A DNA stretch of 64,000 bases from Thermoanaerobaculaceae bacterium (GTDB lineage: Bacteria; Acidobacteriota; Thermoanaerobaculia; Multivoradales; UBA5704). Location: assembly GCA_963785165.1 (NCBI GenBank), contig CAWAUI010000007.1:1032732-1096731 (forward strand), in the 5' to 3' direction. A program made the position numbers and the translations under genes. Positions 5,534-43,486 of this stretch are shown one piece after another (the first letter of the stretch is position 1; each line of letters begins with the position of its first letter). Under the pieces are notes generated by a model. The model saw only the letters and a program-made list of their open reading frames with translations, searched no databases and was not told the DNA's origin.

Positions 5534-6016
5534 ATGGCAAAAAATGGCAAGAAGAGGGATACCCAGGAGCCCGGCAACACGGACGGAATCTCCCAGGACC
5601 AGTTCCTTGAAGGTTTGAACGTCGATCTCGCCCATGAGTACGCGGCGGTGATCCTGTACCGCACCTACGCCAGCCAGGTCCAGGGCCAGTGGCGCATGGA
5701 GCTACGCCAGTTCTTCGAGGCCGAAATCCCCGACGAGCTCGGCCACGCCCAGATCCTGGCCGACAAGATCGTGTCCCTGGGCGGCACCCCCACCACCGTC
5801 CCCGCGCCGGTCAAGCCGGCGAAGGACGCCAAGGAGATGCTCAAGAACGCCCTGGAGGATGAGATCGAGACCATCCAGCGCTACGTCCTGCGCCGCAAGC
5901 AGGCCGAGGCCCTGGGCCACTACGGACTGGCCGTCGAGTTCGACGACCTGATCCGCGACGAGACGACCCACCGCGACGAGATCCGGATGATCTTGAAGCG
6001 GTGGGACACCGGTTAG
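5534..6016 (+). CDS. Ferritin-like/Dps-bacterioferritin superfamily protein
   Basis: AAAGGAG RBS. Metal-ligand-like positions: EYAAVILYRTY, EAEIPDELGHAQILADKI, LEDEIETIQRY. Confidence 0.65.
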   Translation: MAKNGKKRDTQEPGNTDGISQDQFLEGLNVDLAHEYAAVILYRTYASQVQGQWRMELRQFFEAEIPDELGHAQILADKIVSLGGTPTTVPAPVKPAKDAKEMLKNALEDEIETIQRYVLRRKQAEALGHYGLAVEFDDLIRDETTHRDEIRMILKRWDTG

Positions 6017-6273
6017 GCCCCGGCTTCTCAACAGCGCAGTAACTGAAGCTCTGAGCTGGACGGAACGGAGCGGGCTCTCCGGCTCAGAGCCTTCCCTTGC
6101 GCCTCCTGACGAGCGAAGTCAGCACGGCGAGCTCCTCGGCTTCGTCCTCCGTGCTTCCGGCAGCCCGGTTGGAGACTGCCACGGTGGAGCTGGCCCGCAA
6201 GGTGATGGCGGAGATTGAGCTCGTGCAACTGATCCCGGACGACGGCTCACCTCTTGTTTCCAAGCGCGCTTCC

Positions 6274-6530
6274 CATAGTGCCGGCCTCGTCTCCCATAGT
6301 TTCAACACCGAGGAACATAGGCTGAAGTGTGGGAAACAATGTTCTCGCGCTTAAATACATAGTTCCAGCCTTGACGTCCATAGTTTCAACACCGAGGAAC
6401 ATAGGCTGAAGTGCGGGAAACAATGTTCTCGCGCTTAAATACATAGTTCCAACCTTGACGTCCATAGTTTCAAAGCCAAGGAACTAAGTGTGAGATGCGA
6501 GAAACAATGTTCTCGCGCTTCGCGGCCGGC
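6274..6530. repeat. AT-rich tandem repeat, about 88-bp unit x about 2.7 copies, each unit holding an inverted repeat GGAACAT-N22-ATGTTCTC
   Basis: Unit tccatagtttcaacaccgaggaacataggctgaagtg[t/c]gggaaacaatgttctcgcgcttaaatacatagttcca[g/a]ccttgacg occurs twice nearly perfectly, plus a degenerate third copy. It lies in the 700-bp gap between two convergent genes. Confidence 0.8.
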
Positions 6531-6713
6531 GCGTGAGCTTTCGCGGCCCGGCTCCGGGCGCACCGCATCTAGGCTCTGTCAAGGTAGAAACGACGGTAGG
6601 GGGCGGTCCGCGGGATGCCGTAGGCACCCTGCGTGGCCGCCCTGTTGCGGCAGGCGGCCTGACGGCCGTCAGGCCGGACAACCTAGGGCCGCCCCTACAG
6701 ATATCTCCCGCCT

Positions 6714-8672: not shown

Positions 8673-8695
8673 GAAGTTGATCTCCCCTATGCTCA

Positions 8696-8745
8696 GGTGG
8701 CCATTTCGGTGGAGGCCATTTCGGTGGTGGCCATTCCGGTGGAGG
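8696..8745. repeat. Three tandem 15-bp direct repeats (gccatttcggtggag-like) in the divergent promoter region
   Basis: gtggccatttcggtggag gccatttcggtggtg gccattccggtggagg, between the ASPIC gene start (8672, minus) and the coxI start (8966, plus). Confidence 0.7.
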
Positions 8746-8965
8746 ATGATACGCGAGGTTGCGGCCCGGCCGACCCGTCCCGTACCCCTGCCTTGCGGGT
8801 TGCAAGGCGCCTGTCGTAGACTCAGCCGTCTTTTTCAGAACAGCCGTTCGCATGCTGTACAGAGGTCGCCAAGATGCGGGGCAGATTCCAGGGGCCGCGG
8901 CAGTGCGTCCGCTGCCGGCCGGCTCGTTCTGTCCGTTCCGATCACCGTCCGAAGGGAGATCGTAG

Positions 8966-10741
8966 ATGGCACTAGTCGACGAACGGGCCCATGGTCATCA
9001 CGAGGCCCACCACCACGAAGAGCAGAGTTTCTGGACCAAGTACGTTTTTTCCCAGGATCACAAGGTCATCGGGATCCAGTACGGGTTCACGGCGCTCGTG
9101 TTCCTCCTCTTCGGCTTCACGCTGATGATGATGATGCGCTGGTCGATGGCGTATCCGAACCAGCCCATCCCCCTGGTCGGCGGCCTTCTGAAGGCGAGCG
9201 GGGGGATCATCGCGCCGGAGCTCTACAACCAGCTCGGGGCCATGCACGGCACGATCATGGTGTTCCTCGGGATCGTGCCGCTGGCCGTGGGCGCGTTCGG
9301 CAACTACCTGGTGCCGCTCCAGATCGGCGCGCCGGACATGGCGTTCCCGAAGCTGAACATGGCGAGCTACTGGTGCTACTTCGTGGGCGGCGTGCTGATG
9401 CTGGCGAGCTTCTTCGCTCCCGGCGGCGCGGCACAGTCGGGTTGGACCTCCTACCCGCCGCTGTCGAACATCGCCACCTCGGGCCAGACGATCTGGCTGT
9501 TCGGCATGCTGGCGCTGATCATCTCGTCGGTGCTGGGCTCGACGAACTTCATCGTCACCATCGTCCAGCTCCGGGCCCCGGGCCTGACGTGGATGCGGCT
9601 CCCCTTCTTCGTATGGGCGCAGTTCGTGACGTCGTTCCTGCTGCTGCTGGCCTTCCCGGCGCTCCAGGCGGCGGCGGTGCTGCAGATGATGGACCGGCTG
9701 GCGGGGACGAGCTTCTTCATGCCGAGCGGCCTGGTGATCTCGGGCCAGCAGCTCGCGGTGTCGGGCGGCGGCAGCCCGCTCCTCTGGCAGCACCTGTTCT
9801 GGTTCCTGGCCCACCCGGAGGTCTACGTGCTGATCCTGCCGGCCTTCGGGATCATCGGCGAGGTGATCGCCAACAACACGAGGAAGCCCCTGTGGGGCTA
9901 CCGCTCGATGGTGTACGCGATCTCGTTCCTGGGCTTCATGTCGTTCATCGTGTGGGCGCACCACATGTTCATGACCGGCATGGGCACGGTGATGAGCACG
10001 TTCTTCCAGACCACGACGATGATCATCTCGGTGCCGTCGGTCATCGTTTTGACGGCCATGATCATCTCGCTGTGGGGGGCCTCGATCCGCTACACGGTGC
10101 CGATGCTGTTCGCCATGGCCTTTCTCCCGATGTTCGCCATCGGCGGCCTGACGGGCCTGCCGCTGGGCCTGGCGCCCACGGACATCCACCTGCATGACAC
10201 GTACTACGTGATCGGCCACTTCCACTACGTGGTGGCGCCGGGGACGATCTTCGCGATGTTCGCCGGCATCTACTACTGGTTCCCCAAGCTGACGGGCCGC
10301 AAGATGAGCACGCTCTTGGGGCATCTGCACTTCTGGCCGTCGTTCCTGTTCATCAACGGCGTGTTCGGGCCGATGTTCATCCAGGGCTTGGCGGGCGTCT
10401 CGCGCCGGCTGTACGACGGCGGCGCCGCGTACTCGCACGCCCAGCCGGTGCTGCACTGGAACGCCTTCATGTCGGTGTCGGCCTGGCTGCTCGGCCTGGC
10501 GCAGATCCCGTTCATCCTCAACCTCTTCTGGAGCATCTGGAAGGGGAAGAAGGTGGGCGCCAACCCATGGGACGCCACGACGCTCGAGTGGGCCGCCGCG
10601 CCGTCGCCGCCGGTCGCCCATGGCAACTTCGTGGAGATCCCGACGGTGGTCCGCGGACCGTACGACTACAGCCTGCCGGGGGCCCCCTCGGACTTCGTCC
10701 CGCAGCACCAACCACTCCCGCAGTTGCCGCAGGAGGCTTGA
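8966..10741 (+). CDS. ctaD: Cytochrome c oxidase (heme-copper oxidase) subunit I
   Basis: Canonical 12-TM sequence: WTKYVFSQDHKVIGIQY..., HHMFMTGMG, WAHHMF, GHFHYVV, with the His ligands for heme a/a3 and CuB. Confidence 0.95.
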   Translation: MALVDERAHGHHEAHHHEEQSFWTKYVFSQDHKVIGIQYGFTALVFLLFGFTLMMMMRWSMAYPNQPIPLVGGLLKASGGIIAPELYNQLGAMHGTIMVFLGIVPLAVGAFGNYLVPLQIGAPDMAFPKLNMASYWCYFVGGVLMLASFFAPGGAAQSGWTSYPPLSNIATSGQTIWLFGMLALIISSVLGSTNFIVTIVQLRAPGLTWMRLPFFVWAQFVTSFLLLLAFPALQAAAVLQMMDRLAGTSFFMPSGLVISGQQLAVSGGGSPLLWQHLFWFLAHPEVYVLILPAFGIIGEVIANNTRKPLWGYRSMVYAISFLGFMSFIVWAHHMFMTGMGTVMSTFFQTTTMIISVPSVIVLTAMIISLWGASIRYTVPMLFAMAFLPMFAIGGLTGLPLGLAPTDIHLHDTYYVIGHFHYVVAPGTIFAMFAGIYYWFPKLTGRKMSTLLGHLHFWPSFLFINGVFGPMFIQGLAGVSRRLYDGGAAYSHAQPVLHWNAFMSVSAWLLGLAQIPFILNLFWSIWKGKKVGANPWDATTLEWAAAPSPPVAHGNFVEIPTVVRGPYDYSLPGAPSDFVPQHQPLPQLPQEA

Positions 10742-10745
10742 GGCC

Positions 10746-11345
10746 ATGATGGACATTCCGTATACCACCAAGCTCCGGCCCGATACCGGCCTGTACAACG
10801 CCAAGCTGGGGATCTGGCTGTTCCTGGCGTCCGAGGTGATGCTGTTCGGCGCCCTGTTCTCCTCGTACGTGCTGCTGCGCACGGGGGCCCCTCCGGGCAC
10901 CTGGCACCATGGCCGGGAGTACCTGAGCGTGCCGCTCGCGACCCTCAACACGATCGTGCTCATCGGCTCCTCGGTGACCATGGTGATGGCGTGGGCGTCG
11001 CTCAAGCTCAACGACTTCAAGAAGTACAAGATGTACATGGCCATGACGTTCCTGGCCGGCGTGGGCTTCCTGATCATCAAGGGGATCGAGTACAACGCCA
11101 AGTTCCACCACGGCTACTTCCCGAGCAAGAACACGTTCCTCGCCATCTACTTCACGCTGACGGGCCTGCACGGCCTGCACGTGATCGGCGGGATGATCGT
11201 CAACGGCTACTTCTGGGGCCCCGGCTCGAAGATGTGGAAGACCCAGCCCGACCGGTTCGCGAACCGGATCGAGGTGGCGGGCCTCTACTGGCACTTCGTG
11301 GACCTGGTGTGGATCTTCCTGTTCCCGGTCCTGTACCTGCTCTAG
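10746..11345 (+). CDS. ctaE: Cytochrome c oxidase subunit III
   Basis: MMDIPYTTKL...GLYWHFVDLVWIFLFPVLYLL. It starts 4 nt after the coxI stop. Confidence 0.9.
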   Translation: MMDIPYTTKLRPDTGLYNAKLGIWLFLASEVMLFGALFSSYVLLRTGAPPGTWHHGREYLSVPLATLNTIVLIGSSVTMVMAWASLKLNDFKKYKMYMAMTFLAGVGFLIIKGIEYNAKFHHGYFPSKNTFLAIYFTLTGLHGLHVIGGMIVNGYFWGPGSKMWKTQPDRFANRIEVAGLYWHFVDLVWIFLFPVLYLL

Positions 11346-11363
11346 GCGAGGAGAGAGACGACG

Positions 11364-11669
11364 ATGAGCGCAACCGACGCTGATTCGATCCGGAAACAGA
11401 CCCGGGCCTACGTCGGGGTCTTCCTGGCCCTGATGGTTCTGACCGTGCTGACGGTGGCCGTCAGCTACTTCCACATGCCCGTCGTCTGGGCCGTGGTCGT
11501 GGCCCTGATCATCGCCAGCTTCAAGGGTTCGCTGGTGGCGGCGGTGTTCATGCACCTCAACCACGAGCGCAAGGCGATCTACTGGCTGCTGCTGCTGACG
11601 GTGCTCTTCTTCATCATGCTGATGGCGATCCCGTCGCTGTGGCATTGGGACGGGCGGTACGTGCGGTGA
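11364..11669 (+). CDS. Cytochrome c oxidase subunit IV (prokaryotic caa3/aa3-type small subunit)
   Basis: About 100 aa with 3 TM; AYVGVFLALMVLTVLTVAVSYF...; its position after coxIII fits this role. Confidence 0.65.
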   Translation: MSATDADSIRKQTRAYVGVFLALMVLTVLTVAVSYFHMPVVWAVVVALIIASFKGSLVAAVFMHLNHERKAIYWLLLLTVLFFIMLMAIPSLWHWDGRYVR

Positions 11670-27664: not shown

Positions 27665-27740
27665 CGCCGATCAAGCTAGCACAACCCCATGTATCCTTGG
27701 CCCCTGGAGCGCATCCAAGTTGGGGAGGACGAGAACGATC

Positions 27741-28388
27741 ATGGACGACACCCCACACACCGGCGCCGACCGGGTCCCGCCGGGCCAGTACGTCACCAAC
27801 AAGTGGCCGGTCCTCACCTATGGCCGCACGCCGGCGGTCGAGCCCGAGAAGTGGTCACTGCGCGTCTTCGGCCTCGTCGCCGAGGAGACGGCGTTCTCCT
27901 GGAAGGCCTTCCAGGCCCTGCCCCGCGTCCGCGTCACGGCCGACTTCCACTGCGTCACCCGCTTCTCCACCCTGGACAATGGCTGGGAAGGGGTGGCGAC
28001 CCGCGAGGTGATCCGGCACGTCCGGGTCGATCCCGAGGCGTCGCACGTCATGGTCCACTGCTACGGCGGGTACACAACCAACCTGCCGCTCGAGGACTTC
28101 CTTTCGGACAAGGCCCTGTTCGTGGACCGCCACAACGGCAACCCTCTGCTGATCGACCACGGCGGCCCGGTGCGCCTGGTGGTCCCCCATCTCTACGCCT
28201 GGAAGAGCGCCAAGTGGGTGAACGGCATCGAGCTGATGAAGGAGGACCGCCGGGGCTTCTGGGAAGAGAACGGCTACCACACCTACGGCGATCCCTGGAC
28301 GGAAGAGCGCTTCAGCTCCCAGGAGACCCAAAACGCCGCTCAGGTGAGACGGCGGGCCAAGGAGCTGGGAATCGTGCCGGAGGAGTGA
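27741..28388 (+). CDS. Sulfite-oxidase-family molybdopterin-binding oxidoreductase (YedY/MsrP-like catalytic subunit)
   Basis: GGAGG sits 13 nt upstream of the ATG. Oxidoreductase_molybdopterin-binding domain features: FHCVTRFS, HNGNPLLIDHGGPVRLVVP. Confidence 0.7.
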   Translation: MDDTPHTGADRVPPGQYVTNKWPVLTYGRTPAVEPEKWSLRVFGLVAEETAFSWKAFQALPRVRVTADFHCVTRFSTLDNGWEGVATREVIRHVRVDPEASHVMVHCYGGYTTNLPLEDFLSDKALFVDRHNGNPLLIDHGGPVRLVVPHLYAWKSAKWVNGIELMKEDRRGFWEENGYHTYGDPWTEERFSSQETQNAAQVRRRAKELGIVPEE

Positions 28389-28429: not shown

Positions 28430-28790
28430 ACCCGGACCTCTTCCCATGGCAGCTCCCCTTCTTGCCGCGCCACCTCCCCCTCGTCCCGCGGCAACCGGCA
28501 GTGCTCCCGAGTCACTCCCCCCTCTTGCCGCACCACTCCCCCTTCTTGCCGAGACACCCCCCCTCCTTGCCGCGCCTCTACCCTCTCTTACCCGCGCGCT
28601 CCCCTCCCTTGCCGTGGGCCGCGGCGAGAGAGGGGGATGGCATCCCAACACAGGGGAGCACCGCGGCAAGAGGGGGAGGTGTCTCGGCAAGACAGGGCGC
28701 TGGCGCGGAAGCACTGCCGGTTGCCCCGGGAAGAGGGGGAGGAGGCGCGGCAAGGCGGGGAGAAGACGCGGGAGCGCTTCCGCGCACCGC
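28430..28790. repeat. GC-rich degenerate heptad repeat (C-rich CTTGCCG x about 5 direct, then CGGCAAG x about 3 inverted) forming a long imperfect inverted repeat
   Basis: cttcttgccgcgcc / ctcttgccgcacc / cttcttgccgagac / ctccttgccgcgcc / cccttgccgtggg, then cggcaagagggggaggtgtctcggcaag / gcggcaaggcgggg. The central pair cttgccgagacaccccccctc and gagggggaggtgtctcggcaag is nearly reverse-complementary. Confidence 0.7.
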
Positions 28791-29746: not shown

Positions 29747-30256
29747 ATGAACCCGCCCCTCAGCTCCGAATGGCTCCATCAGATCGTCTGGCTCCTCCTG
29801 CTGGCGATTCCCATAGCGTGCGTGGCCTGGACGGTCACCCACGAGGAGGTCTTCCGCGAGCCGCGCGAGTACTGCGCGGACCGCTCCAGGACCGCCCGCG
29901 GCCTGCTAGCCCGGAAGTTCTTCTACCTCTTCACCTGCGAGTACTGCTTCAGCCACTATGTGACGGCCTTCTTCCTGATCGTCACCCGGTATCACCTGCT
30001 GCTCGACGACTGGCGGGGATACCTCATCGCCTTCTTCGCCCTGGTGGCCATCGCCAACGTCTACATGAGCGCCTTCGGCCGGCTGCGGCAGGAGGTCAAG
30101 TCGGAGAAGCTGACGGCGGAGAAGAAGGAGATCGAGCTGGAGGAGGTGAAGGCGGGCGGCGGCGAGGCTCAGGTCGATTCCCCGGTAGGGGCGGCCTCAT
30201 CCAGCTCCTCGACCCCGGCCAAGATCTCCCGGGCGCGTTCGGCGTCTTCGGGGTAG
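29747..30256 (+). CDS. Hypothetical membrane protein (3 TM) with an acidic/Ser-rich tail
   Basis: LHQIVWLLLLAIPIACVAWTV, FYLFTCEYCFSHYVTAFFLIV, LIAFFALVAIANVYMSAF. Its 3' end overlaps the convergent DUF2007 gene, so the true stop may be earlier. Confidence 0.4.
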   Translation: MNPPLSSEWLHQIVWLLLLAIPIACVAWTVTHEEVFREPREYCADRSRTARGLLARKFFYLFTCEYCFSHYVTAFFLIVTRYHLLLDDWRGYLIAFFALVAIANVYMSAFGRLRQEVKSEKLTAEKKEIELEEVKAGGGEAQVDSPVGAASSSSSTPAKISRARSASSG

Positions 30257-30732
30257 ACCTCGACGCGGCTCAGGGCGGTGGGTGCGCCGGTGAGGAGGCT
30301 CACGGCGGGCAGGCGCTCTTCGAGGACACAGGCGTCGATCCCCTCGGATTCGAGGAGGGTGCGGGCGAGATGCGCTTCCCAGGGCGTGGTGAAGCGCCCG
30401 ACGGTGACCAGGGCCACGGGCTCGTCGTCCTCCTCCAGTGTCTCTTCTTCGGCGAGGCCGGGCGGGTCGTCTTCCGTCACCAGGTAGAGGATGGGGCGGC
30501 GGGTGCGCAGCAGCTCGGCCGCGGAGCCCGCGTCTTCCGGGCGGACCTGGAGGCGCACGCCGCCCAGGGTGCTCGACAATGCGCCGCCGTAGAGACGCTG
30601 GAAGTGCTCGTCCGCGATGACGGCGTAGATCCCCTCGGCCTCCAGGCAGGAGCGGGCGAGCTGCGCCTCCCAGGGAGACGTGAAGGTCTCGACCGTGACC
30701 AGCTTCTCGATGTCGTATTCAGGGTCCGGCAC
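30169..30732 (-). CDS. Tandem DUF2007-like domain protein (putative signal-transducing protein fold)
   Basis: Two repeats, LVTVETFTSPWEAQLARSCLEAEGIYAVIADE and LVTVGRFTTPWEAHLARTLLESEGIDACVLEE. The GTG start overlaps the upstream small ORF stop. Confidence 0.5.
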   Translation of the reverse strand: MPDPEYDIEKLVTVETFTSPWEAQLARSCLEAEGIYAVIADEHFQRLYGGALSSTLGGVRLQVRPEDAGSAAELLRTRRPILYLVTEDDPPGLAEEETLEEDDEPVALVTVGRFTTPWEAHLARTLLESEGIDACVLEERLPAVSLLTGAPTALSRVEVYPEDAERAREILAGVEELDEAAPTGEST

Positions 30733-30935
30733 TAGAGAACACCACCGCTCCGAAGCAGGAATCCGAGGCCCAGAAACAGGGCACCGAAGAACAGCGCCGT
30801 GCCCAGGGCCGCCCACAGGCCCGCTGCCCGCCCGCGCCAGTGTTTGGCGATGAGGTAGGCGCCGATCACGCTGAACAACGCGAAAAGACAGAACAGCGTC
30901 AGGGGCAACCACATTTCGGAGGCGGTGGGTGTCAT
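30732..30935 (-). CDS. 67-aa two-TM membrane protein
   Basis: MTPTASEMWLPLTLFCLFALFSVIGAYLIA...ALGTALFFGALFLGLGFLL. It lies between the MBL gene and the DUF2007 gene on the same strand. Confidence 0.4.
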   Translation of the reverse strand: MTPTASEMWLPLTLFCLFALFSVIGAYLIAKHWRGRAAGLWAALGTALFFGALFLGLGFLLRSGGVL

Positions 30936-30950
30936 GGCGTGGACGCCATG

Positions 30951-32471
30951 TTACCCCTCCACGGTGATGTCGAGGTACAGGTCGTCCTCCACGCAGCGGG
31001 AGGCGAAGCCCTTCCACTCCCCCGCCGGCACCTTGGAGGGTCGCTTGGGGAGGCCCCGGTCGACGCGGAGGACCCGGCCGTTGGTCTTCTCCTCCAGCCG
31101 CTTGAGCAGCGGAGGGAAAGGCATGTCCCATCCCTTGGGGCTGCCGCCCTTGGGTTTGTGGGCCATCTGCTCGTCCACCGGAATCAGGGCGACGAGGTCT
31201 GGATGGGCCATCATCTCCAGCCCTTTTTCGCGCAGGGTGGCGTTGTGGCTGGCGTGGTGCCCCACCTTGTAGAGCACGGTACGGCTCAGGAGGTCCGCGG
31301 CGGTGACGGGATCCTTCGGATCGCCCGTGTCGCCACCTTTCCGCTGCCACTCCAGCTTGTGCCAGGAATTCCAGTTCCCCGCCTGGGCGTCGCCCGGGAA
31401 GAGGAGGACCTTGCCGCTGGGGACGAGCTCGATGGCCAGGGCCAGGCTGGTGTTGTTGGTGTCGCTGTCGAGCTTCAAGGCCAGGCTGCCGGCCGAGCCC
31501 AGCCAGTCCGTGTCGATACGGCGCCACTCCAGATCCTCCTCGGTGAGGCGATTGTCAGAAGCCTTGCCGGGGAAGCCGTAGTAGAGCTCCTGAAAGAAGG
31601 CGTCTTTCTTCGCGGCCTCGGGCGCGACCCGGAAGACCTTGTCGAACGGGAAGGCAAGCTTGGCGGCGGCCTTCTCCTCGGGGCTCATGGGCCGTTCGCC
31701 CGCCTTCTCCTGGGCGTGGAGCACCGCGGAAACGAAGGCCGCCTTTTCGTCGAGCGCGAGCCGGGCCTCGTAGGCCTCGCCGCTCCGGGGATCGGAACGC
31801 TTGAGGAAGTCGAGATCCTTCGGGGGCCCAAGCACGTAGACGCGCGCTCCGGCGGCTCCCGGGATCGGCAACGGCCCTTCCCCCGGAGTGCGGTAGCGCG
31901 GCGGCTTGCCCCGCCCCACCGCGTAATCCATGGCCTGCTCGATGCCCCCGGGCTTGCCGGCCACCCCCAGGCCGGACGGGTCGCCGAAGAAGCCGAGGAC
32001 GGAGCTCATGCCGTCCGCCCGGCGGAGGGCGTCCTTGTCGCCGCTCTCCCGCAGGTGGGCCACGGTGGCGGTGAGGGCACGCAGGGCGTTCGCCCGGTCG
32101 CGGCGCAGGGAGCGGGAGACCGGATCCTCCGGATCCTCCGTCCAGGCCACCCAGACCTCGCCGATTTTCAACCGGTCGAAGAGGTCGCGCGCCTGTTCGA
32201 AGCCCGAGAGGTGGTCCCAGTGCTCGTGGGTGGCCACCAGCACGTCGATCCGCCCGCCGGTCGACTCGAGGATGTGCGCCACGACCGCGCGCACCCGCTC
32301 GGCCCCGCCGGGAGTGCCCAAAAGCACGCCGCAGTCGATCAGCATGAAACGGGGGCGCGAGCCGCGGCTGGCCGGGAAGGCCAGCAGGAAGCAGTCGCCG
32401 AGCCCCTGGCGGTACATGCGCACGGTGACGCCGGACTTGGGAGCCTTCATGGTGGGAGTTGGGTCGGCCAT
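30951..32471 (-). CDS. MBL-fold metallo-hydrolase (506 aa, with a long C-terminal extension)
   Basis: GGAGG RBS. The MBL motif is IDVLVATHEHWDHLSGF, with a downstream Asp/His (KVGHHASHNA). Confidence 0.8.
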   Translation of the reverse strand: MADPTPTMKAPKSGVTVRMYRQGLGDCFLLAFPASRGSRPRFMLIDCGVLLGTPGGAERVRAVVAHILESTGGRIDVLVATHEHWDHLSGFEQARDLFDRLKIGEVWVAWTEDPEDPVSRSLRRDRANALRALTATVAHLRESGDKDALRRADGMSSVLGFFGDPSGLGVAGKPGGIEQAMDYAVGRGKPPRYRTPGEGPLPIPGAAGARVYVLGPPKDLDFLKRSDPRSGEAYEARLALDEKAAFVSAVLHAQEKAGERPMSPEEKAAAKLAFPFDKVFRVAPEAAKKDAFFQELYYGFPGKASDNRLTEEDLEWRRIDTDWLGSAGSLALKLDSDTNNTSLALAIELVPSGKVLLFPGDAQAGNWNSWHKLEWQRKGGDTGDPKDPVTAADLLSRTVLYKVGHHASHNATLREKGLEMMAHPDLVALIPVDEQMAHKPKGGSPKGWDMPFPPLLKRLEEKTNGRVLRVDRGLPKRPSKVPAGEWKGFASRCVEDDLYLDITVEG

Positions 32472-32507
32472 GGCTGTCCTCCGTCTCTTTCCGGGTCAAA
32501 GATTTCG

Positions 32508-34428
32508 TCAGAGAGACCGGTGAAGGAGGGCGAACGGCTCGGCCTCCTCGCGCACCCTGGGGTCGCCGAAGTAGGTGGCCGCGAGCGAGCCGTCCGAGTC
32601 GCCGGCCACGAACCGGCGCTGGCGCTCCAGCCGCTCGGCGCTCGTGATCCCCTTGCCGATGCAGTAGCGGACCTCGCTGCGCTCCAGGTTGACGAGCACC
32701 GTGGAGCCGCCGCGGAACCAGAAGTCCTCCGGGGGCGGCGGATCGATCTTCCCCTCGTCCACCATCGTCTGGAGGTCGGGGTCGAGATAAGCACGCCGCT
32801 TCTGGGTGAGCTCGATCACCAGGTCCACCCTCGTGTCGCCGTCGGGGGCGATGCGCCGGGCGGGGCGCACGGAGTGGACCTCGAACTTGGGGAGGCCCTG
32901 CGCCCCGCGCTCGATCGACAGGGGAGCGTCCGCCTCCAGGGCCAGGCCAAGAGACGGACCGAGCGGCCGGCCGAGGTTCGACAGCCAGGCATGGACCTGC
33001 GCGGCGCTCTTCTGGGTGGCCTTCCAGGCATCCTTGCGGTCCGACGAGAGCGACCACTCGGGCTGGAGGCTCGCGAGGTACCCGGCCTGGGGGAGCAACG
33101 CCTGGAACTTGGGCATGTCCTCCGCGTCGGGCCCGGCCCAACAGAGGCTCTCGGCCGAGAGGCTGCGCACCCCCTGGGGATAGATGCCGCGGCGCCGGAA
33201 GGCCTCGATGATGGAGATCCGGTAGCGCCTCTCGTCGTCGGGCACGAGGTCGCGGTCCGCGGTGATCAGTGCCCGCAGGTAGTCGCCGAAGTCCATGTCC
33301 ACCGGCGGGCAGTAGTCGAGGGCGCGGATGCACATGTTGAGGAGGTGGGCGGCGGTGCCGACGCCTCGCGGGCCAGGCGGTCGACGAGGTCGGGGTGGAT
33401 GGCCCCCGCCGGCAGCACGCCCGTGCCGCCGGTGGCGATGCGCAGCAGGTCGGCGATGCGCGATTTGTAGATGGAGAGGAAGGCGTCGAACACCGCCGCC
33501 ACCAGGATGGCGCCGCGGGCGTGCGGCTCGCGGGTGGTCTGGAGATCCACCGGGTCCGGCTCCTTGGGCCGCCACTGCCGGGTCTCCGGATCGATCGTCC
33601 CGATGGCGTCGCGCAGGGCGCCGTAGCTGCCGATGGCCTGGCCGAACTGGTGGGCCAGCGCCGCCAGCAGGTTCTGCGAGGCGAGGTCGCCCCGCGTGCG
33701 GGCGATCTGGTGGCGCAGCACCTCGGGGAAGGAGAAGTGCTGGAACAGGGCCACGATGTCGGCGAACGCCTCGTGGAAGGCCAGGACGTCCGGGTTGCTG
33801 GGCTCGATGAAGCGGCGGTGCAGGCCGTCGAGCAGGGCGTGGGTGGTCTCGTGGGCGATGATGTCGTGCGACAGGCAGGTGAACACCGTGCCGCCCGGCA
33901 GGTTGTGCCCCGGGTCCGTGGTCGAGGCCGGGAAGTAGCCGAAGAGCAGGGCCTTCTTCTGCGGGCTGTAGTAGGCGTTGGCCTCGCGCAGGGCGTGCGG
34001 GTAGATGCGCAGGCGCCGCACGCCGACGCGTAGTCCTGCTCCGGCCCGGCCTCGGACCAGAAGACCCGGCGGCCCAAGCGCCCGCTCGAAGTTGCGGATG
34101 GTGGTCATGGCGACCGCGTAGACCATCTGCTGGTGGAACTGCGGATCCCCCTCGGCCGGGTCGAGGCCGTCCATGGCCAGGACGTTGGGATCATTGAGAT
34201 CCACCGGCGCGTAGCAGCAGCCGCTCGCCGGATCGACGTCGACCACCTCCAGGTACTCGCCGACCGGCCCGGGCTCCAGCCCCTCCCAGGGCACGTCCAG
34301 CGTCATCCGGTTCAGGACGGCGGTATCGAGCTGCCAGTTGAAGCTGGGATCGAAAGCGTAGACCCGCAGGCTGCGGGAGGTGGGCGGCCGCTTCGGGGGC
34401 GGCAAGATTCTGGAGGCCGGGGGCTTCA
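32508..34428 (-). CDS. Thermolysin-like (M4-type HExxH...E) zinc metallopeptidase-domain protein of about 640 aa with no signal peptide, frameshifted near 33345
   Basis: IIAHETTHALLD then 20 aa then AFHEAFADIVA, matching the M4 pattern AHELTHAVTD...NEAISDIFG. A GTG start is preceded by AAGGAGG. The C-terminal half is read in a second frame (GTAAHLLNMCIRALDYCPPVDMDFGDYLRAL...). Confidence 0.65.
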
Positions 34429-34593
34429 CGGGGGCTGCCCTCCTTTGTTTACGGCGTTCCTTCAATTATAAGCCCTCACCCCCCCCCCGGCCCTCCCGGA
34501 AGGCAAGGACCCCAAGGACACCAAGGGCTTCAGGGACGGGCAACGCGTCTCTCCTCAAGCGTCCTTGCCGTCCCTGGTGTCCTTGAGGTCCTT

Positions 34594-36793
34594 TTACTTG
34601 TAGAACTTCTCCCCCCGCCGGGCCATCTCGCGCAGCAGCTCCGCCGGCCGCAGCCGGTCGCCGTAGCTGGTCGGCGTAGCGCGTCGAGCGTCTCCACCAC
34701 CCAGGGGAGGCCCATGCCGGTCCGCCTCGCGCAGCAGGCCGCCGCGGAAGGGGGGGAAGCCGAAGCCGAAGATGACGCCGATGTCGACGTCCGCCGGGTT
34801 GGTGATGATCCCCTCCTCCATGCAGCGGGCGGTCTCGTTGAGCATCTGGAGCCAGCAGCGCTCGACGATCTCCTGGTCCGGAGACGGGCGTCGTCCTGCC
34901 AGTCGAGCAGGCGGTAGACGGCCGGGTCGACCTGCTTCTCGCCCTTCTTCCCCTTCCCGTCCTCTTCGTAGAGGTAGAAGCCGCGCTTGGCCTTGCGGCC
35001 GAGTCGCTTGTCGTCGATCATCTTCTGCGAAGATCGGCGGCGGGGCCACGCGGTCGCCCAGCGCGTCCTGCAGCATCTCGCCCACGTGGGCGCCCACGTC
35101 GAGCCCCACCTCGTCCATCAGGGCGAACGGGCCGACCGGCCAGCCCCAGCGGGTCATGGCACGGTCGACCTGCTCGATGCTCGCGCCCTCGGCCAGCATC
35201 CAGGCCGCCTCGTTGAGCATGGTGCCGAGCACCCGGCTGGTGAAGAAGCCCGGGCCGTCGTTGACCACGATCACCGTCTTGCCCATCTTGCGGCCGACCT
35301 CGACGATGGTGGCGAGGGTCTCCTCGCGAGGTGCCGGGGTGGCGGATGATCTCCAGGAGCGGCATCTTGGCCACGGGGCTGAAGAAGTGCATGCCCACCA
35401 CGTTCTCCGGCCGGCGGCTCGCCTCGGCCAGCTTGGCGATGGGGATCGAGGAGGTGTTGGAGGCGAAGATCAGCCCTCTCCCGGTAGTCACCGCCGCGGC
35501 TTCCGTCTCGCGGATGCACGTTCGCTGCTTGACCTCCAGATCCTCGAACACGGCCTCGACGACGAAGTCCACGTGCCGCAGAGCGGCATAGTCGACCGTG
35601 CGGCAGGATGCGCCCCAGGGCGTTCTTGGCCGCGGCGTCGCTCAGCCGGCGGCGCTTCACCAGCTCGCGGAACTGCTGCCGGCAGAAGCCGTAGCCCCGG
35701 CCCACGGACGGCAGGTCGCGGTCCTTGAGGATGATGGGCAGGCCCTTGTAGGCGAGCACCTGGGCGATGCCGGCGCCCATGAAGCCGGCGCCCAGCACGC
35801 CCACGGTTTCGACCGGGCGGGCCTTCTTCGCGATCTTCGCCGCCCGGGCCTCGACGTCGTTCTTGGTGAAGAAGATGGAGATCAGGCTCTTGGCGGTGTC
35901 GGAGACCACCAGCTCGGAGAAGGCGCCGGCTTCGAGGTCCAGGGCGCGGCGGAGGGGGAGCTTCAGCCCGTCGCGGACGATGTCGACCGCCACCAGCGGC
36001 GCCGGGTAGTGGCCGCCGGTCTTCGCCATCACTCCGGCCTGGCCTTGTCCCACACCATGGGGCCGCCCAAGGGCGAGCGGGCGAGGAAATCGCCGGCCCG
36101 GGAGGCGAAGGGCTTCTTCTTTTCCTTCTTCTTGTTCTTGCCGCGCCCCCGGATGGCTTTCTCCGCCGCGGCCCGCAGGTCGGCGGGGTGGCAGGTGTCG
36201 TCCACCAGGCCCAGCTTCTTCGCCTTGCGGGCGTCCACCTGCTTGCCGGTGAGGATCAGGTCGAGGGCGTCGGGGACGCCGATCAGGCGGGGCAGGCGCT
36301 GGGTGCCGCCGAGGCCGGGGATCAGCCCGAGCTGCACCTCGGGGAGGCCCAGCTTGGTCTTGGGATGCTCCGTCGCCACCCGGTACCGGCAGGCCAGCGC
36401 CAGCTCCAGGCCGCCGCCCAGGCAGGCGCCGTGGATGGCGGCGACCGTGGGAAACGGCAACGCCGCCAAGCGCTCCATGAGGTCATGGCCGCGCTGCAGC
36501 ATGGCGATCAGGGAGTCTTTGTCGGAAACCGCGAGCAGCTCTTCGAGGTCCGCCCCGGCCACGAAGCCGTCCGGCTTGCCGGAGAAGATGACGAGGCCTT
36601 CGGGGCGTTCGCGCTCGACGCGGGCGACCTGCTCCTCGAACCAGGCGAAGAGGCGGGTCGAAAGGGTGTTGACCTTCTTGCCGGGATCGTCGAGGCGGAG
36701 CCAGGCGATCCCGTCTTCATAAGCCAGCACGCCGGGCGGCGTGCCGGCCTGGACAGTCTTTTCCGTTTGGGTTGGGGCTTCGATGACGCTCAT
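34594..36793 (-). CDS. Fatty-acid oxidation complex alpha subunit (FadB/FadJ-like: enoyl-CoA hydratase plus 3-hydroxyacyl-CoA dehydrogenase), with at least 5 frameshifts
   Basis: Crotonase N-domain (FSGKPDGFVAGADL, HGACLGGGLELALAC); NAD-binding VGVLGAGFMGAGIAQV; 3HCDH core IFASNTSSIPI, GMHFFSPV; C-terminal 3HCDH_C segments are recovered from three alternating frames. Confidence 0.8.
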
Positions 36794-37954: not shown

Positions 37955-38191
37955 TCAGCCCTCGTCGTCCCCTTCCAGGCTCTGCACGATCTGGGTGACC
38001 TCGACCTCGGCCTTGCGGATCTTCCCCCGGCAGAGGTCGAGGAGCTGGGCGGCGCGGCGCAGCTCCTCGGCCAGGCGGTCGATGTCGATCTCTTCGCCCT
38101 CGATCCGCTCGAGGATCCCTTCCAACTCGTCCATGGCCTCGCGGAAGCTCGGGTTGGCCTCGGCGGTCCCGTTGGTATTCGGCTCACTCAT
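37955..38191 (-). CDS. xseB: Exodeoxyribonuclease VII small subunit
   Basis: FREAMDELEGILERIEGEEIDIDRLAEELRRAAQLLDLCRGKIRKAEVEV. Confidence 0.85.
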   Translation of the reverse strand: MSEPNTNGTAEANPSFREAMDELEGILERIEGEEIDIDRLAEELRRAAQLLDLCRGKIRKAEVEVTQIVQSLEGDDEG

Positions 38192-39545
38192 GATTCCTCC
38201 ACTCGGCTCTGCAAGTCTCCCCCGGCGAGGCGGGTGGTGATGAGGTCTCCGGGCCTGGCGTCGCCCGGGTGGCGCAGGGTCCGCCCGGCGGCGTCCCGTG
38301 TCAGGCTGAAGCCCCGTTCCAGGGTGCGCTCCGGGGCGAGCTGGAGCGTCAGGCGCTCGATCCCCTGGAGCGTCGCGGCGGCTTCCCGCACCTGGCGCGC
38401 CCCGAGCCGGCGATCCGCCCGCCCAGCCGGACGCGCTCCCGTTCGGCCGCTTCGAGCCGGCGGGGCGTCAGCTCGATCAGGCGGCCGCGCACGGCGTCCT
38501 GCCGGCGTTCGGCGGCGCGCAGGGCGCTCTTGCCCAGGCGGGCCAGGGCGCGGGCATGCTCCTCGATCCGGTCGCCGGCGGCGGCCAGCCGCATGCGGGC
38601 CAGGCTGACTCCCCGTTCCGCCCGCCCCAGGGCCTCGCGGCTGGAGCGCAGCGGCTCCAGGGCCTCGCGCAGCAGCCGGCGCCGCAGCTCCGTCGACCGC
38701 CTGGTCGGCCGACGGCCACGCGCTCGACCAGGAACTCGGCCGCCTTGGTGGGGGTCTTGAACGCCGTGTGGGCGACCAGGTCGGCGATGGCGACGGTCGA
38801 TCTCGTGCCCCAGCCCGGTGAGGACCGGGAACGGCGCCAGCGCGATGGCCTCGGCGATCGACCCGGCTGTCGAACGCCGCCAGGTCCGTGCGCGAGCCGC
38901 CGCCGCGGATCAGCACGGCGCAGTCGATCGGCAGGCCGGCCAGAGACGACGAGGGCCGAGACCATCTCCCGCTCCGCCTCCTTCCCCTGCATGGCGGCGT
39001 GGACGAAGATCACCCGGAAGCCGTAGCCGCTCTCGGCAAGCCCGAGAGGAAGTCGTGGTAGGCGGCGCTGCCGTGCGAGGTGACCAGGGCGATCGAGAGC
39101 GGCAGGTCCGCCAGCGGCAGCCCGCGGTTGCGCTCCATGAGGCCCGCGGCGGCCAGGGCGGCCAGGGTCTCCCGCCGCCGCCGCTCCAGCAGGCCCAGGG
39201 TGAAGGCCGGGTCCACCTCGCGCACGCAGAGCTGGAGCCGGCCGCCGGGGGCGTAGAAGTCGAGGCCGCCCCGGCAGCGGATCTGGACCCCGTCCGTCGA
39301 GCCGCTGCGACGAGCGCCGAGAGCACGCGCTGGACCCTGACGGCGTCCCTCTTCCAGATCACCGCGTCGAGCTTGCCGACGATCTCGTCGCGCTCGCCCT
39401 TCTCCACCAGCTCGAAGTAGAGGTGCCCGCGGGCGCTCGGCCGCACGCGCTGCGCCTCGCCCACCACCCACACGGAGGGGAACGCCTCGCCCAGGAAGTC
39501 GCGGACCTCCCCGCAGAGCTGCGGCGACGCTGTAGGTAGGCTCGA
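38188..39545 (-). CDS. xseA: Exodeoxyribonuclease VII large subunit, multiply frameshifted
   Basis: N-terminal OB fold (VWVVGEAQRVRPSARGHLYFELVEKGE), a middle region (PLSIALVTSHGSAAYHDFLSGL; AVLIRGGGSRTDLAAFD) and the C-terminal end (LERGFSLTRD...) lie in different frames. Confidence 0.75.
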
Positions 39546-40275: not shown

Positions 40276-40878
40276 TCATATCCCAGGGACGGCCGGGGGC
40301 GCTCCCGCAGGCCCAAACCCAGCAGGAGCCCGGCGGTGCAGCCCCCCAAGGTGGGCGGCGTTGTCGATGCCCGGAATGGAGAAACCGAGGAAGACGTTGA
40401 TCGCCGCCCAGCCCACGAGCTGGGAGAGCAGCCCCTTGGCCTGAGGGGTGAGGAGCTGGCGCCGCTTGAGGAGGAAGGCGATGAGGGCACCCATCACGCC
40501 GAAGATGGCCCCCGACGCACCGGCCGACAGCGACTGGGTGAACATCACGCTGGCGAGGGAGCCGGCGATGCCGCTCACGAAGTACACCAGCAGGAGCTTG
40601 CGGGAGCCGAGGATCAGCTCGAACAGGGCGCCCAGCTGCAGAAGAGCCCAGCCGTTCACCAGCAGGTGCACGAAGCCGATGTGGAGGAACATGCTGGCCA
40701 CCAGACGCCAGTACTGGTGGGAGCCCAGGACCAGAGGCGGGAAGTTCGCTCCCAGGGTCAGCAGCACCCGGGGATCGGTCGATCCGCCCAACAGCGTCTC
40801 CGCCAGGAACACGATCCCGATGAGGACGAGGAGCAGGGTGGTGACGGGCGCCTGCCGGCCGATCAGCATGGCCGGCAT
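40276..40878 (-). CDS. Rhomboid-family intramembrane protease (second copy); the C-terminus is probably frameshifted
   Basis: Rhomboid core HLLVNGWALLQLGALFE, GASGAIFGVMGALIA (GxSG), AHLGG. Confidence 0.6.
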   Translation of the reverse strand: MPAMLIGRQAPVTTLLLVLIGIVFLAETLLGGSTDPRVLLTLGANFPPLVLGSHQYWRLVASMFLHIGFVHLLVNGWALLQLGALFELILGSRKLLLVYFVSGIAGSLASVMFTQSLSAGASGAIFGVMGALIAFLLKRRQLLTPQAKGLLSQLVGWAAINVFLGFSIPGIDNAAHLGGLHRRAPAGFGPAGAPPAVPGI

Positions 40879-40905
40879 GGTATCGCGAAACGGGGCGGGG
40901 GGCCT

Positions 40906-43486
40906 TACGGGTACGTTCCTCGCGACACCCGCGCCTTGAGCCCCTTGCGGATCTTCACCTCCACGGGCCGGAACCCGTTGACGTCCGCCGGGTGGTCGGA
41001 GCTGTAGGTGAGGAGGTAGCGGCTGCGCAGCTCCTCGCCGATCTGGCCGTAGACGTTCGACAGCTCGTCGGCCCGCTCGATGAAGAAGGCCCGGCCGCCC
41101 GTGGCCGCGGCCAGCTCCTCGAGCTTCCCCCGGGGACCCGTTGCCGAGGCCGATCGTGTAGATCGTCACGCCGCTCCTCTTCGCGTAGGCCCAGGGCGTC
41201 CTCCCAGGTGGTGCTGCTCGCGGTGTCCTCGCCGTCCGTCAGCAGCACCAGGGCCCGCTGCCCCCGCTCGGCGCGGAAGTAGTAGAGCGAGGTGAGGATG
41301 GCGTCGTAGAGGGTGGTGCGGCCGAACGCGCTCAACCCTTCGAGCGCCAGGGCGGCGGCCTCGGCGTCGTCCACCGGCGGCATGAGCAGCTCCGGCCGGC
41401 CGCCGAACTGGAGCACGAAGCAGCGGTCGTCCCGCTGGAGCAGCTTCTGGACGAAGCCGGCGGCGGCCCGCTGCGCCTCGGCGAGCGAGGACACCATGGA
41501 GAAGGAGGTGTCGATGGCGATGCCCAGGGAGAGCGGCAGGTCGTCCACCTGCTCGAAGCGCACGATCTTCTGCGGCTTGCCCGCCTCCAGCACCTCGAAG
41601 TCGGAGGCCGGCAGGCCCCGCACCGGGTGGCCGGAGCCGTCCAGGGCCGCGGCGAACAGCTCGACGAGATCGACCTCGACCTCGCCGAGGTTGGCCGGTG
41701 CCCGCAGGAAGCGCACGTCCTCGGCCTGGGAGCCGTCGTCCAGCCGCGCCGTCACCGTGAGGTAGGCGAGGTCGCCTTCGGCCGGCACCTGGATCTCGTG
41801 CTGCCAGGGGGGCTGGGTGAGAGTGGCGGCCACCCGGTCGTTGACTTTGAATTCGACGCTCTCGACGCGCCGCTCCTCGGGCACCACCACCTCGGCCCGG
41901 GCGACGGTCTTGCCGCTGGCCCGTCCACCCCGCCGGGGGTCGGTGATCAGTACCCGGAAGCGCCCCCGGGCCTGGTTGACCACCAGCTGGTCCCAGGCCA
42001 CCAGCTCGCCCGCCGCGTCATACCCCTCTACGCGCACCACCTGCTCGCGGGGAGAATCGGCGAGCCGCATCTCCGCCGAGTAGGGCGGCCGGGTGCGCGT
42101 GAGCTGGGGCTGGCCGTCCAGCAGGAAGACCACCTTGCCGATGCGGTCGCCCGAGACCACCGTTTCCGCCCGCCAGACGCCCAGCAGCACCTCGGCGGGC
42201 GGCGGCAGGAGGAGCAGGGTGTCCGGCCCCGTCACACCGGAACGCACGGCTTCGCCGCCCACGGCGGCCGCCACCAGCTCGGTGGGAAGAGTCCTCTCCG
42301 GGCCACCCGGCACGTGGAACCCACGGGCCAGCCGCACCTCGGCGCCGCTCGCCTCGTCCTTGACCTTCAGCCGCAACACGAAGCTCTGGCCCGGGCGTAC
42401 GGCGCGCTCCAGGAGCAGGGCGGCGGGGGTTCCGGACGCCGGCGGTGCGATCTGGTAACGGACCCGGAAGTCCTCGAAGACCTCGCCCTCGCGCTCCAGC
42501 ACGCCGTTGACCGCCAGACGCACGCGCGGTTTGCCGTCTTTGCCCACCGGGCCCGCCATACCGGACGCCGACGGCAGGGTCACCAGGAAACGGGCGAGCA
42601 GGCGCTGCCCCTGGCGGCGGGGGAAGTCCACGTCCAGCGTGCCGGCTTCCAGGGCCTCCGGAGCCGGCGGCAGCACGGTGGCCGCCGCCTCACGGGCCCA
42701 GGCCGCGAGATCCGCCCGTCCCCAGAGCAGCACGATCCGGTCCTCGGGGCGGACCCAGCGGAAATCCGGTCCAGTCGACCCCGTCTCCGGCCCCGCCTGC
42801 TTCTCCGGCCGGTCCTCCGCCGCGTAGTCGGCATTGGCCCCCTTGACCGGCACGCCCAGGCCGTCCAAGCCGGTGGCGGCGTCCACCCGCACCGAGTCCG
42901 GGCAGAAGAAGCGGTCGATCCGCTTCTTGAGCGGCAGGCGCAGCAGGTCCCACTGGGCGAGCCAGAACTGCATCTCGCTGGTGTAGAGGGCGCGCTTGGA
43001 GTCGATGGGCAGCCAGAGGCGGAACGGCTCGCCGGCCGAGGGGCGGAAGAGCACGAGATCCTTCACCTCACCGCTCGCGCCCCGGTAGGCCCAGACCTCC
43101 AGCGGTCGGAAGGCGGCGGCGCAGTCCACCACCAGGCGCTCGACGGGCCGGCCGCGCAGGAAGAGGAGCTCCGCCCGGGCGTCCCGCGGCGAAGGGAGCT
43201 CCTGGGCCACGAGGCGCATCCGGCGCTCGATGCCCGTCCGCAGCTCGTTCTCGGGCGTCTCGGGAAGAGGATCGCGTTCGAGGAATTCCTGGATCAGCCG
43301 CTCGCGTCCGGCCTCGTCGACCCCCAGGATCTCGCTCCGCTCCTCCGCCGACAGCAAGAGGCCCGGGCCGTCCTGGTAGAAAGCCCGCTGCGGCTCCGGC
43401 CAGAGGGTGGGGTCGGACTGGGCGAAAGATGGAAGCGCGAAAAGGAGAAGGAGGACCCCTACGAAACGCCTTCCCCGTCGTCTCAC
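40906..43486 (-). CDS. VWA domain-containing protein of the Acidobacteria-type VWFA-related family (TIGR03436-like); its C-terminus has several frameshifts
   Basis: Signal peptide RRRGRRFVGVLLLLFALPSFAQS. The architecture is conserved with the upstream paralog (GPGLLLSAEERSEI..., DLVELFAAALDGSGHPV, LGIAIDTSFSM MIDAS, TIYTIGLG, GFRPVEVKIRKGLKARVSRGTYP end). Confidence 0.75.

Follow-up and report, generated by a model that had tools for sequence, protein, structure and literature searches.

Proteins with a ComEC-like metallo-beta-lactamase (MBL) fold that are encoded beside trypsin-like proteases are pro-nucleases in the defence systems Hachiman, AVAST, Lamassu and DRT (Tuck et al., 2025, PMC12799240; Evans et al., 2025, PMC12642450). 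The trypsin-MBL modules comprise HamM with protease-HamAB (Hachiman), Avs1a/Avs2 (AVAST), and variants of Lamassu and DRT (PMC12799240; PMC12642450; Huang et al., 2025, bioRxiv 2025.09.03.673762), and two insertions mask the MBL active site in these pro-nucleases (PMC12799240; PMC12642450). Three MBL clades are distinguished, which are paired with trypsin-like, caspase-like and S8 subtilisin-like proteases, and the clade paired with S8 subtilisin-like proteases was named as uncharacterised (Evans et al., PMC12642450). A metalloprotease partner is mentioned in none of the main texts of Tuck et al., Evans et al. and Huang et al. (2025), and literature searches on MBL proteins with metallopeptidases, on subtilases with MBL proteins and on DUF2007, a domain encoded close to the genes described here, returned nothing relevant. 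In a 64,000-nucleotide stretch of DNA from a Thermoanaerobaculaceae bacterium of the Acidobacteriota (GenBank assembly GCA_963785165.1, contig CAWAUI010000007.1, positions 1,032,732 to 1,096,731; hereafter the window), we noticed a gene for a thermolysin-like zinc metallopeptidase followed closely by a gene for an MBL-fold hydrolase. By analogy with the systems above, we lean towards reading this locus as a metalloprotease-gated MBL pro-nuclease of the anti-phage type.

The reading frame of the peptidase is interrupted in the window (see below), and the repaired protein was used for the comparisons. A database search with it returned thousands of homologues, most of which were ~640-aa "hypothetical proteins" of Thermoanaerobaculia; the best identity, 84%, was to intact 639-aa homologues. 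Scans of the repaired peptidase against Pfam, NCBIfam and PADLOC detected no family, Peptidase_M4 and M4_C included, at E-values up to 0.1, and a PDB sequence search with the peptidase profile found no M4 chain at E-values up to 10. A PKS match from the latter search was discarded as spurious. A preliminary description of this DNA, made from the letters alone, had proposed a thermolysin-like active site, and structural comparison points the same way. In an AlphaFold2 (AF2) model of the peptidase (predicted TM score, pTM, 0.78), residues ~190–610 were confidently predicted and the N-terminal lobe poorly so (pLDDT below 50). The top six meaningful Foldseek matches of this model in the PDB were M4 enzymes, at E-values of 0.012–0.4 and TM-scores of only 0.41–0.48 on target; aureolysin, thermolysin and vibriolysin were the best (E 0.012–0.1, TM ~0.45). 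Hhalign aligned the two active-site helices of the peptidase (IIAHETTHALL...LHEAFADVV) with those of thermolysin (VVAHELTHAV...INEAISDIF) with a probability of 83% and an E-value of 1e-5. As in family M4, HExxH is followed ~20 residues on, in the next helix, by xEAxxD. The peptidase differs from family M4 in its apparently cytoplasmic location and in an additional C-terminal domain of ~200 aa, as well as in the lack of any profile or PDB sequence match to that family. Neither a hydrophobic N-terminal signal sequence, the lack of which had been noted before, nor an FTP or PepSY propeptide domain was found. Thus, the peptidase is a thermolysin-like gluzincin that stands outside family M4 by sequence-profile and secretion criteria, and the model predicts an N-terminal beta-rich part, an HExxH/xEAxxD core and the C-terminal domain, which would be of alpha/beta type. 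Because the full HExxH...xEAxxD motif is retained in 148 of 150 diverse representatives of the family, the domain is, judged by this conservation, an enzyme and not a mere scaffold.

The MBL gene is intact in the window, and its product is 100% identical to a protein in the database (P0121). The protein is 506 aa long and contains HEHWDH, as previously described, and both Pfam (Lactamase_B) and Foldseek support the MBL fold; its gene has its own GGAGG, 8 nt ahead of the ATG. The HxHxDH, DSDTNNTSL, FPGDAQ (GD) and VGHHASHN (HH) motifs are invariant in the MBL family alignment. In PDB sequence searches, ComEC-type chains were the top matches, although weak, and aligned with residues 21–91 and 394–435 of the MBL, with ~190 extra residues between the two ComEC-aligned ends. 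In an AF2 model (pTM 0.75), two inserted segments lie between core elements (Table 1), the second being largely of low confidence. Among 31 members of the MBL family, the PADLOC models matched were LmuA-MBL (31 of 31; best E 4e-13), RTasMBL, a DRT-associated MBL (29 of 31), and Avs1a (22 of 31), and the NCBIfam models were Avs1a (31 of 31; best E 2e-9) and 6A-MBL (27 of 31). By these profiles, the nearest models are those of protease-paired defence MBLs (Lamassu, DRT and Avs1a), and the kinship to ComEC-type and defence MBLs is one of remote homology only.

The two genes have been kept together over great evolutionary distances. When each GTDB species was scanned through a single genome, the peptidase was confirmed in at least 577 species genomes, which span more than 12 phyla and include that of an archaeon. 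In a profile search of 1.84 billion representatives, 5288 peptidase clusters at 50% identity were obtained. The 80 loci kept from the scan, with peptidase identities of 50–73%, belong to Acidobacteriota, Gemmatimonadota, Planctomycetota, Bacteroidota, Chloroflexota, Armatimonadota, Pseudomonadota, Actinomycetes, Verrucomicrobiota, Myxococcales, Clostridia and one Euryarchaeota metagenome-assembled genome (MAG). Of the first 87 loci, 83 have an MBL homologue directly downstream of the peptidase gene and in the same orientation; the four exceptions are three contig ends and L046, in which the MBL gene is 4.3 kb away. When 91 related loci from more than 12 phyla were compared, only the peptidase and MBL genes stayed together, i.e., on the same strand, adjacent and co-varying. 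The distance matrices of the two proteins, calculated for 78 loci, correlated with an r of 0.84 (Mantel p 0.001), and with 0.66 among distant pairs. Clustering of neighbouring open reading frames (ORFs), of which only the two dominant clusters were used given the antisense artefacts in high-GC loci, revealed no conserved families beyond the peptidase and the MBL, except a patatin gene in seven loci. On this comparative evidence, the functional unit is the peptidase-MBL pair, which is widespread and strongly conserved. The Euryarchaeota MAG (L026) also contains the pair, with 59% identity for the peptidase and 39% for the MBL, which implies either cross-domain transfer or bin contamination.

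In the preliminary description, the unit had been a four-gene operon that also included the genes for a 67-aa membrane protein (TM67) and a tandem DUF2007 protein. The four minus-strand genes do lie close together between 34429 and 30169, and their identities were given correctly: TM67 has two hydrophobic segments, consistent with the two transmembrane segments assigned to it, and Pfam recognised two DUF2007 stretches (E 1e-19). The gaps are 36 nt from the peptidase stop to the MBL gene and 15 nt from the MBL gene to the TM67 gene, the GTG of the DUF2007 gene shares one base with the TAG of the TM67 gene, and seven close relatives (L004, L005, L007, L092, L093, L008 and L020) share this gene order. 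This tight packing would suit a single system in which TM67 and the DUF2007 protein act as regulators or membrane-anchoring partners. Across genomes, however, the association is kept only by the peptidase and MBL genes. Matches to TM67 and DUF2007 in tblastn searches were confined to Thermoanaerobaculia-type loci, both genes being absent from every locus outside this group and from the plasmid versions described below. Moreover, in six loci (L001, L002, L010, L011, L013 and L094) the next genes after the MBL gene are MFS or ABC-permease/LysR genes on the opposite strand; where TM67 and DUF2007 are present in loci of this type, they sit beyond the inserted genes and must have their own promoter. 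A four-gene system is therefore very improbable and is largely refuted by synteny. The four genes are probably carried on one transcript in the window organism, and the two downstream genes are probably unrelated to the pair.

The peptidase was found on 62 plasmids, and in all eight annotated plasmid loci inspected the MBL gene was adjacent to it. In six of these eight loci, the pair is flanked by CBASS, Hachiman, SIR2, integrase or transposase genes. On pRle248a of R. leguminosarum and pAtH25_79a of A. tumefaciens, a gene for patatin, here a patatin-like phospholipase, lies 10 nt upstream and Hachiman (DUF1837 and a helicase) directly downstream, with CBASS upstream in pRle248a; on pColt5.8d of R. 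rhizogenes, the same patatin-peptidase-MBL trio has as neighbours an ATPase/HNH pair and a CBASS that includes a SAVED effector of its own. The pCMU01 plasmid of M. extorquens encodes a peptidase fused to an N-terminal S8 subtilase and flanked by two SIR2 genes. On two plasmids of Hymenobacter, the pair is immediately preceded by a gene for an AAA ATPase of ~790 aa, and an MPN/JAB gene comes after the MBL gene. An integrase, DUF4238, patatin and ThiF are encoded nearby on a Deinococcus plasmid, and IS630 and IS110 transposases, with no recognised defence genes, near the pair on pMspAR10a of Mesorhizobium sp. AR10. A search of a phage collection yielded two partial matches only and no sign of a phage-borne origin.

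The patatin-peptidase-MBL trio of the three Rhizobiaceae plasmids occupies positions 6800–11437 (L089), 5800–10455 (L095) and 5807–10522 (L096) of the respective loci, and suggests a three-gene version of the module with two latent effectors. We also considered the patatin of pRle248a as a mere CBASS effector. This was rejected, given that A. tumefaciens has the same trio but no CBASS with it and that the CBASS beside the trio in R. rhizogenes has a SAVED effector of its own. In the Hymenobacter loci (L090, 5583–11330; L098, 4550–10342), the AAA ATPase is annotated for double-strand break repair and the MPN/JAB gene is convergent; the ATPase may be a sensor partner.

The peptidase itself varies in architecture. 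Half of the best 150 of the 5288 peptidase clusters are no longer than 800 aa, and 54 of the 150, about a third, exceed 1050 aa and have a long N-terminal extension. Eight longer peptidases were scanned with Pfam. A Peptidase_S8 domain was recognised at the N-terminus of seven, in one case by a weak and partial match, and a C-terminal GDPD domain was also present in one of the seven; the eighth had TPR-S. In all six of the peptidases above 1050 aa that were checked in this way, the N-terminal extension was Peptidase_S8. Five peptidases (P0019, P0027, P0046, P0094 and P0113) are tandem duplications in which the motif is intact in the second copy and degenerate in the first (HQxxH, HLxxH or none), so that the catalytic Glu or the whole motif is lost. 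The degenerate half may thus be a regulatory pseudo-enzyme, and the single-copy peptidase might act as a dimer. One tandem peptidase locus (L003, 6333–15293) has a patatin gene upstream, Lipase_3 directly after the MBL gene and a convergent Trypsin_2 gene; these hydrolases may all be protease-controlled effectors.

The preliminary description had guessed at a processing, toxin or defence-type module, a guess now backed by the plasmid and defence context and by the literature of 2025. By analogy with the trypsin-MBL modules and with the caspase-MBL system canu (caspase-nuclease, CanABC), the MBL would be a latent DNase, the active site of which would be masked by the insertions. A trigger would be sensed by the non-catalytic domains of the peptidase or, in other versions, by fused or adjacent partners. 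The triggered peptidase would then cut the insertions of the MBL and release a Zn-dependent nuclease, which would arrest or kill the infected cell.

Several likenesses to the trypsin-MBL modules favour such a pro-nuclease. In both cases, a ComEC-like MBL is encoded by a separate gene adjoining the protease gene and the two proteins co-evolve; the MBLs of the trypsin modules have two insertions relative to ComEC, as the window MBL has two inserted segments; and the trypsin modules occur in defence islands. The window MBL family also matches the LmuA-MBL, RTasMBL and Avs1a models. The differences are that the window protease is a zinc metallopeptidase and not a trypsin-like serine protease, that none of the known sensors (STAND, HamA or LmuA) is fused to it, and that the window MBL is ~500 aa long, compared to model lengths of ~350–390. 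Other observations count against a pro-nuclease of the anti-phage type. The gene order, protease and then MBL, is the reverse of that in the trypsin-MBL modules, being the same as in canu. No sensor domain was recognised in the peptidase, and its frame is broken in the window copy. The matches to defence-MBL models span only the N-terminal ~90 residues of the MBL, at scores far below the trusted cut-offs (23 bits versus 420 for Avs1a), and Foldseek searches with the MBL model returned only generic MBL folds of unknown function. In the window, the neighbouring genes are fadB, xseAB and one for a rhomboid protein, none of them a defence gene, and the pair has been inherited vertically beside housekeeping genes in this lineage, which is atypical of defence islands. 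A location in defence islands or on mobile elements was thus seen for the family, in the plasmid loci, and not for the window.

Some of the same observations would fit a housekeeping or metabolic couple, e.g., an intracellular peptide-processing enzyme with an MBL that processes small molecules or RNA, which would be non-immune at least in Thermoanaerobaculia. The module has a stable chromosomal position beside fadB in this Thermoanaerobaculia-type genome, and the identities to the same relatives are similar for the peptidase (84%) and FadB (~86%); the lack of defence or mobile genes near the pair and the generic structural matches of the MBL are likewise in keeping with such a role. In contrast, a housekeeping couple would not readily account for identities of 50–60% across more than 12 phyla, carriage by the 62 plasmids, the defence and mobile genes that flank most of the plasmid loci inspected, the shuffling of fusions and partners (S8, TPR-S, patatin and ATPase), or the defence MBLs as the nearest profile families. 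We regard a housekeeping role as unlikely and retain the gated pro-nuclease as the preferred explanation.

With regard to the class of protease, the window partner is neither trypsin-, caspase- nor S8-like, and the thermolysin-like domain is the only protease domain that it contains, which sets it apart from both canu and the S8-associated MBL clade ("Clade 3" of Evans et al., PMC12642450). In common with these, the window locus has the putative nuclease gene downstream of a gene for a stand-alone non-trypsin protease. Moreover, the MBL partner of the S8-fused peptidases is 44% identical to that of the window, and the S8-associated clade is probably this same peptidase-MBL family. If the S8-fused members are that clade, the thermolysin-like domain would be the constant partner of the MBL and the S8 domain an optional addition. 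It is quite possible, and we suggest tentatively, that thermolysin-like zinc metalloproteases are a fourth class, after the trypsin-, caspase- and subtilisin-like proteases, that gates ComEC-like MBL pro-nucleases. In this proposal, the pair would be a two-gene immune module in which the non-catalytic domains of the peptidase are the sensor; the thermolysin-like domain, and not S8, would partner the "S8-associated" MBL clade throughout, the module could also gate a second effector (patatin), and the pair would be a core chromosomal one in Thermoanaerobaculia. By description only, the peptidase can also be likened to Lit, a protease encoded by the e14 prophage of E. coli. Lit is likewise a zinc protease of the cytoplasm with an HExxH motif; it serves in abortive-infection defence and is activated by a phage product. 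It differs in that EF-Tu is its direct target and that it lacks a nuclease partner.

The peptidase had been reported as a single ORF for a 640-aa protein, which does not hold for the window as assembled. The gene is split between frame A (34465–33266), which encodes the N-terminal 360 residues, and frame B (33575–32508), which encodes the rest, and tblastn matches were likewise divided between two frames. DNA alignment with four relatives (L001, L005, L006 and L007) located three frame-breaking indels, of +1 nt at ~34075, +2 nt at ~34024 and −1 nt at ~33361; ~20 codons are garbled by the first two. Three such indels within a 1.9-kb gene could mark a genuine pseudogene in a module that is decaying in this Thermoanaerobaculaceae host. 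The damage is, however, not confined to the peptidase. Comparison with relatives revealed ten frame-breaking single-base indels in fadB (34594–36793), between 36041 and 34666, making 13 within 2.7 kb across the two genes (33361–36041). Further away, xseA (38188–39473) is spread over at least four frames, and the rhomboid-like and vWA genes at 40276–41169 switch frame at their ends. Most of the fadB indels lie outside homopolymers, and many indels in the window are an extra G or C beside CG. The MBL, TM67, DUF2007 and rhomboid genes are intact. Because the neighbouring genes are also broken, and because the pieces of the peptidase remain 70–88% identical to relatives within frame and have no in-frame stops, the three frameshifts are, from their pattern, most likely consensus errors of the assembly and not decay, and we consider a pseudogene quite improbable. 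The sister genomes are long-read "MFD" MAGs with Flye-style contig names, which fits consensus errors, and the window assembly is probably of the same long-read type. It should be noted that the frameshifts were counted by comparison with relatives and by inspection of xseA, the GC3 frame plot being too noisy for a count across the window. Homopolymer lengths and frames in the window are untrustworthy and should not be over-interpreted, and the sequence should be fixed first.

The features of the locus and of its upstream region are listed in Table 1.

Table 1. Features of the peptidase-MBL locus, of the genes downstream of it and of the region between fadB and the peptidase gene (positions in the window)
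Feature	Position	Strand	Description and evidence
Peptidase gene	32508..34429	-	Thermolysin-like (gluzincin) zinc metallopeptidase; GTG start 34429, stop 32508; ~640 aa when repaired
Peptidase active site			AHETTHALLD ... FHEAFAD; ORFs and frames, DNA alignment of relatives, tblastn, AF2 model, Foldseek, hhalign
MBL gene	30951..32471	-	506-aa MBL-fold hydrolase; Pfam Lactamase_B, PADLOC, NCBIfam, AF2, Foldseek
MBL motifs and insertions			HEHWDH, DSDTNNTSL, FPGDAQ, VGHHASHN; insertions at residues ~113-190 and ~218-334
TM67 gene	30732..30935	-	67-aa protein, two hydrophobic segments; lineage-specific neighbour outside the conserved module
Tandem DUF2007 gene	30169..30732	-	187 aa; Pfam PF09413, two stretches, E 1e-19; lineage-specific neighbour
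Ribosome-binding site of peptidase	34439..34445	-	AAGGAGG, 9 nt 5' of GTG; kept in six relatives
-10-like box	34465..34470	-	TATAAT, inside the conserved ATAATTnAAGnAAC block
G10 run	34479..34488	- (C10 on +)	8 nt upstream of the -10-like box
Hairpin 3' of fadB stop	34505..34593	-	Imperfect stem of ~30 bp; fold energy -64.1 kcal/mol, z -5.4

Upstream of the peptidase gene, the end of fadB (34594) is followed by the hairpin, the G run and the TATAAT box. The AAGGAGG, the imperfect inverted repeat after fadB, the -10-like box and the C10 tract of the preliminary description are all present, the last two one base away from where they had been placed. The G tract had further been said to abut the -10-like box and to be a poly-G phase-variation switch. 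Eight bases, TGAGGGCT, separate the two, and the switch fares poorly for several reasons. In general, homopolymer tracts of ~10 nt are mutable, and a slipped-strand switch of the module could be read from the composition of the window, in which the tract is a strong outlier: the numbers of G/C runs of 6, 7, 8, 9 and 10 nt are 25, 2, 0, 0 and 1, so that only three runs of at least 7 nt were seen, compared to ~39 expected from a model of independent bases. The box near which it lies is also conserved, given that six related upstream regions have the block ATAATTnAAGnAAC and the ribosome-binding site in common. The tract itself, however, is unique to the window; at its site, the closest relative (L007) has GGGGAGG, and the others have G5–G6 elsewhere, C6, or none. 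No -35/-10 pair of sigma-70 type was detected upstream of the peptidase, and without a -35 element the spacing would not matter in the usual way. Finally, the length of the tract, and perhaps its existence, is unreliable, because it lies between the indels at 34075 and 34666 in the stretch with 13 frame-breaking errors. Phase variation is accordingly most unlikely, and the label of a switch is unfounded on the present sequence data. The scarcity of long G/C homopolymers could be biological or could reflect homopolymer compression by sequencing or polishing.

The spacer between fadB and the peptidase gene varies among relatives. The hairpin at its fadB end is lacking in L005, L006 and L093, the spacers of which are ~75 nt long, and L001 has different, nested palindromes at the same place; a second small hairpin lies beside it in the window, at 34490–34504. 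The larger hairpin is likely a fadB terminator or a REP-like insertion, and the hairpins and palindromes of these spacers look like REP/MITE-type insertions. In L094, a 79%-identical relative, the spacer has ~13 tandem CCGTTGCGGTGAA units, spaced ~20 nt apart, at 2640–2940 upstream of the peptidase and after an inserted 85-aa opposite-strand ORF. This could be an iteron or a regulator-binding array.

At the other end of the locus, a conserved convergent ORF for a 169-aa membrane protein (29747–30256, plus strand) overlaps the 3' end of the DUF2007 gene by ~88 nt. Its homologue is also found 3' of DUF2007 in L001 and L004, and its stop may have been shifted by an indel. Two tandem-repeat arrays, at 28455–28576 (21-nt period, 5.8 copies) and 28664–28782 (63-nt period, 1.9 copies), lie in a GC-rich stretch between a 222-aa ORF (27720–28388) and the rhomboid gene; they translate to proline/arginine-rich repeats in several frames.

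Protease-activated nucleases have been recognised as a recurrent logic of bacterial immunity only in 2025, and the published texts concern serine and cysteine proteases. If the peptidase described here gates its MBL partner, this logic would be extended to a new catalytic class, and the pair would offer a minimal two-gene system in which to study how such proteases sense infection. It would also give a name, in annotation pipelines, to thousands of "hypothetical proteins".

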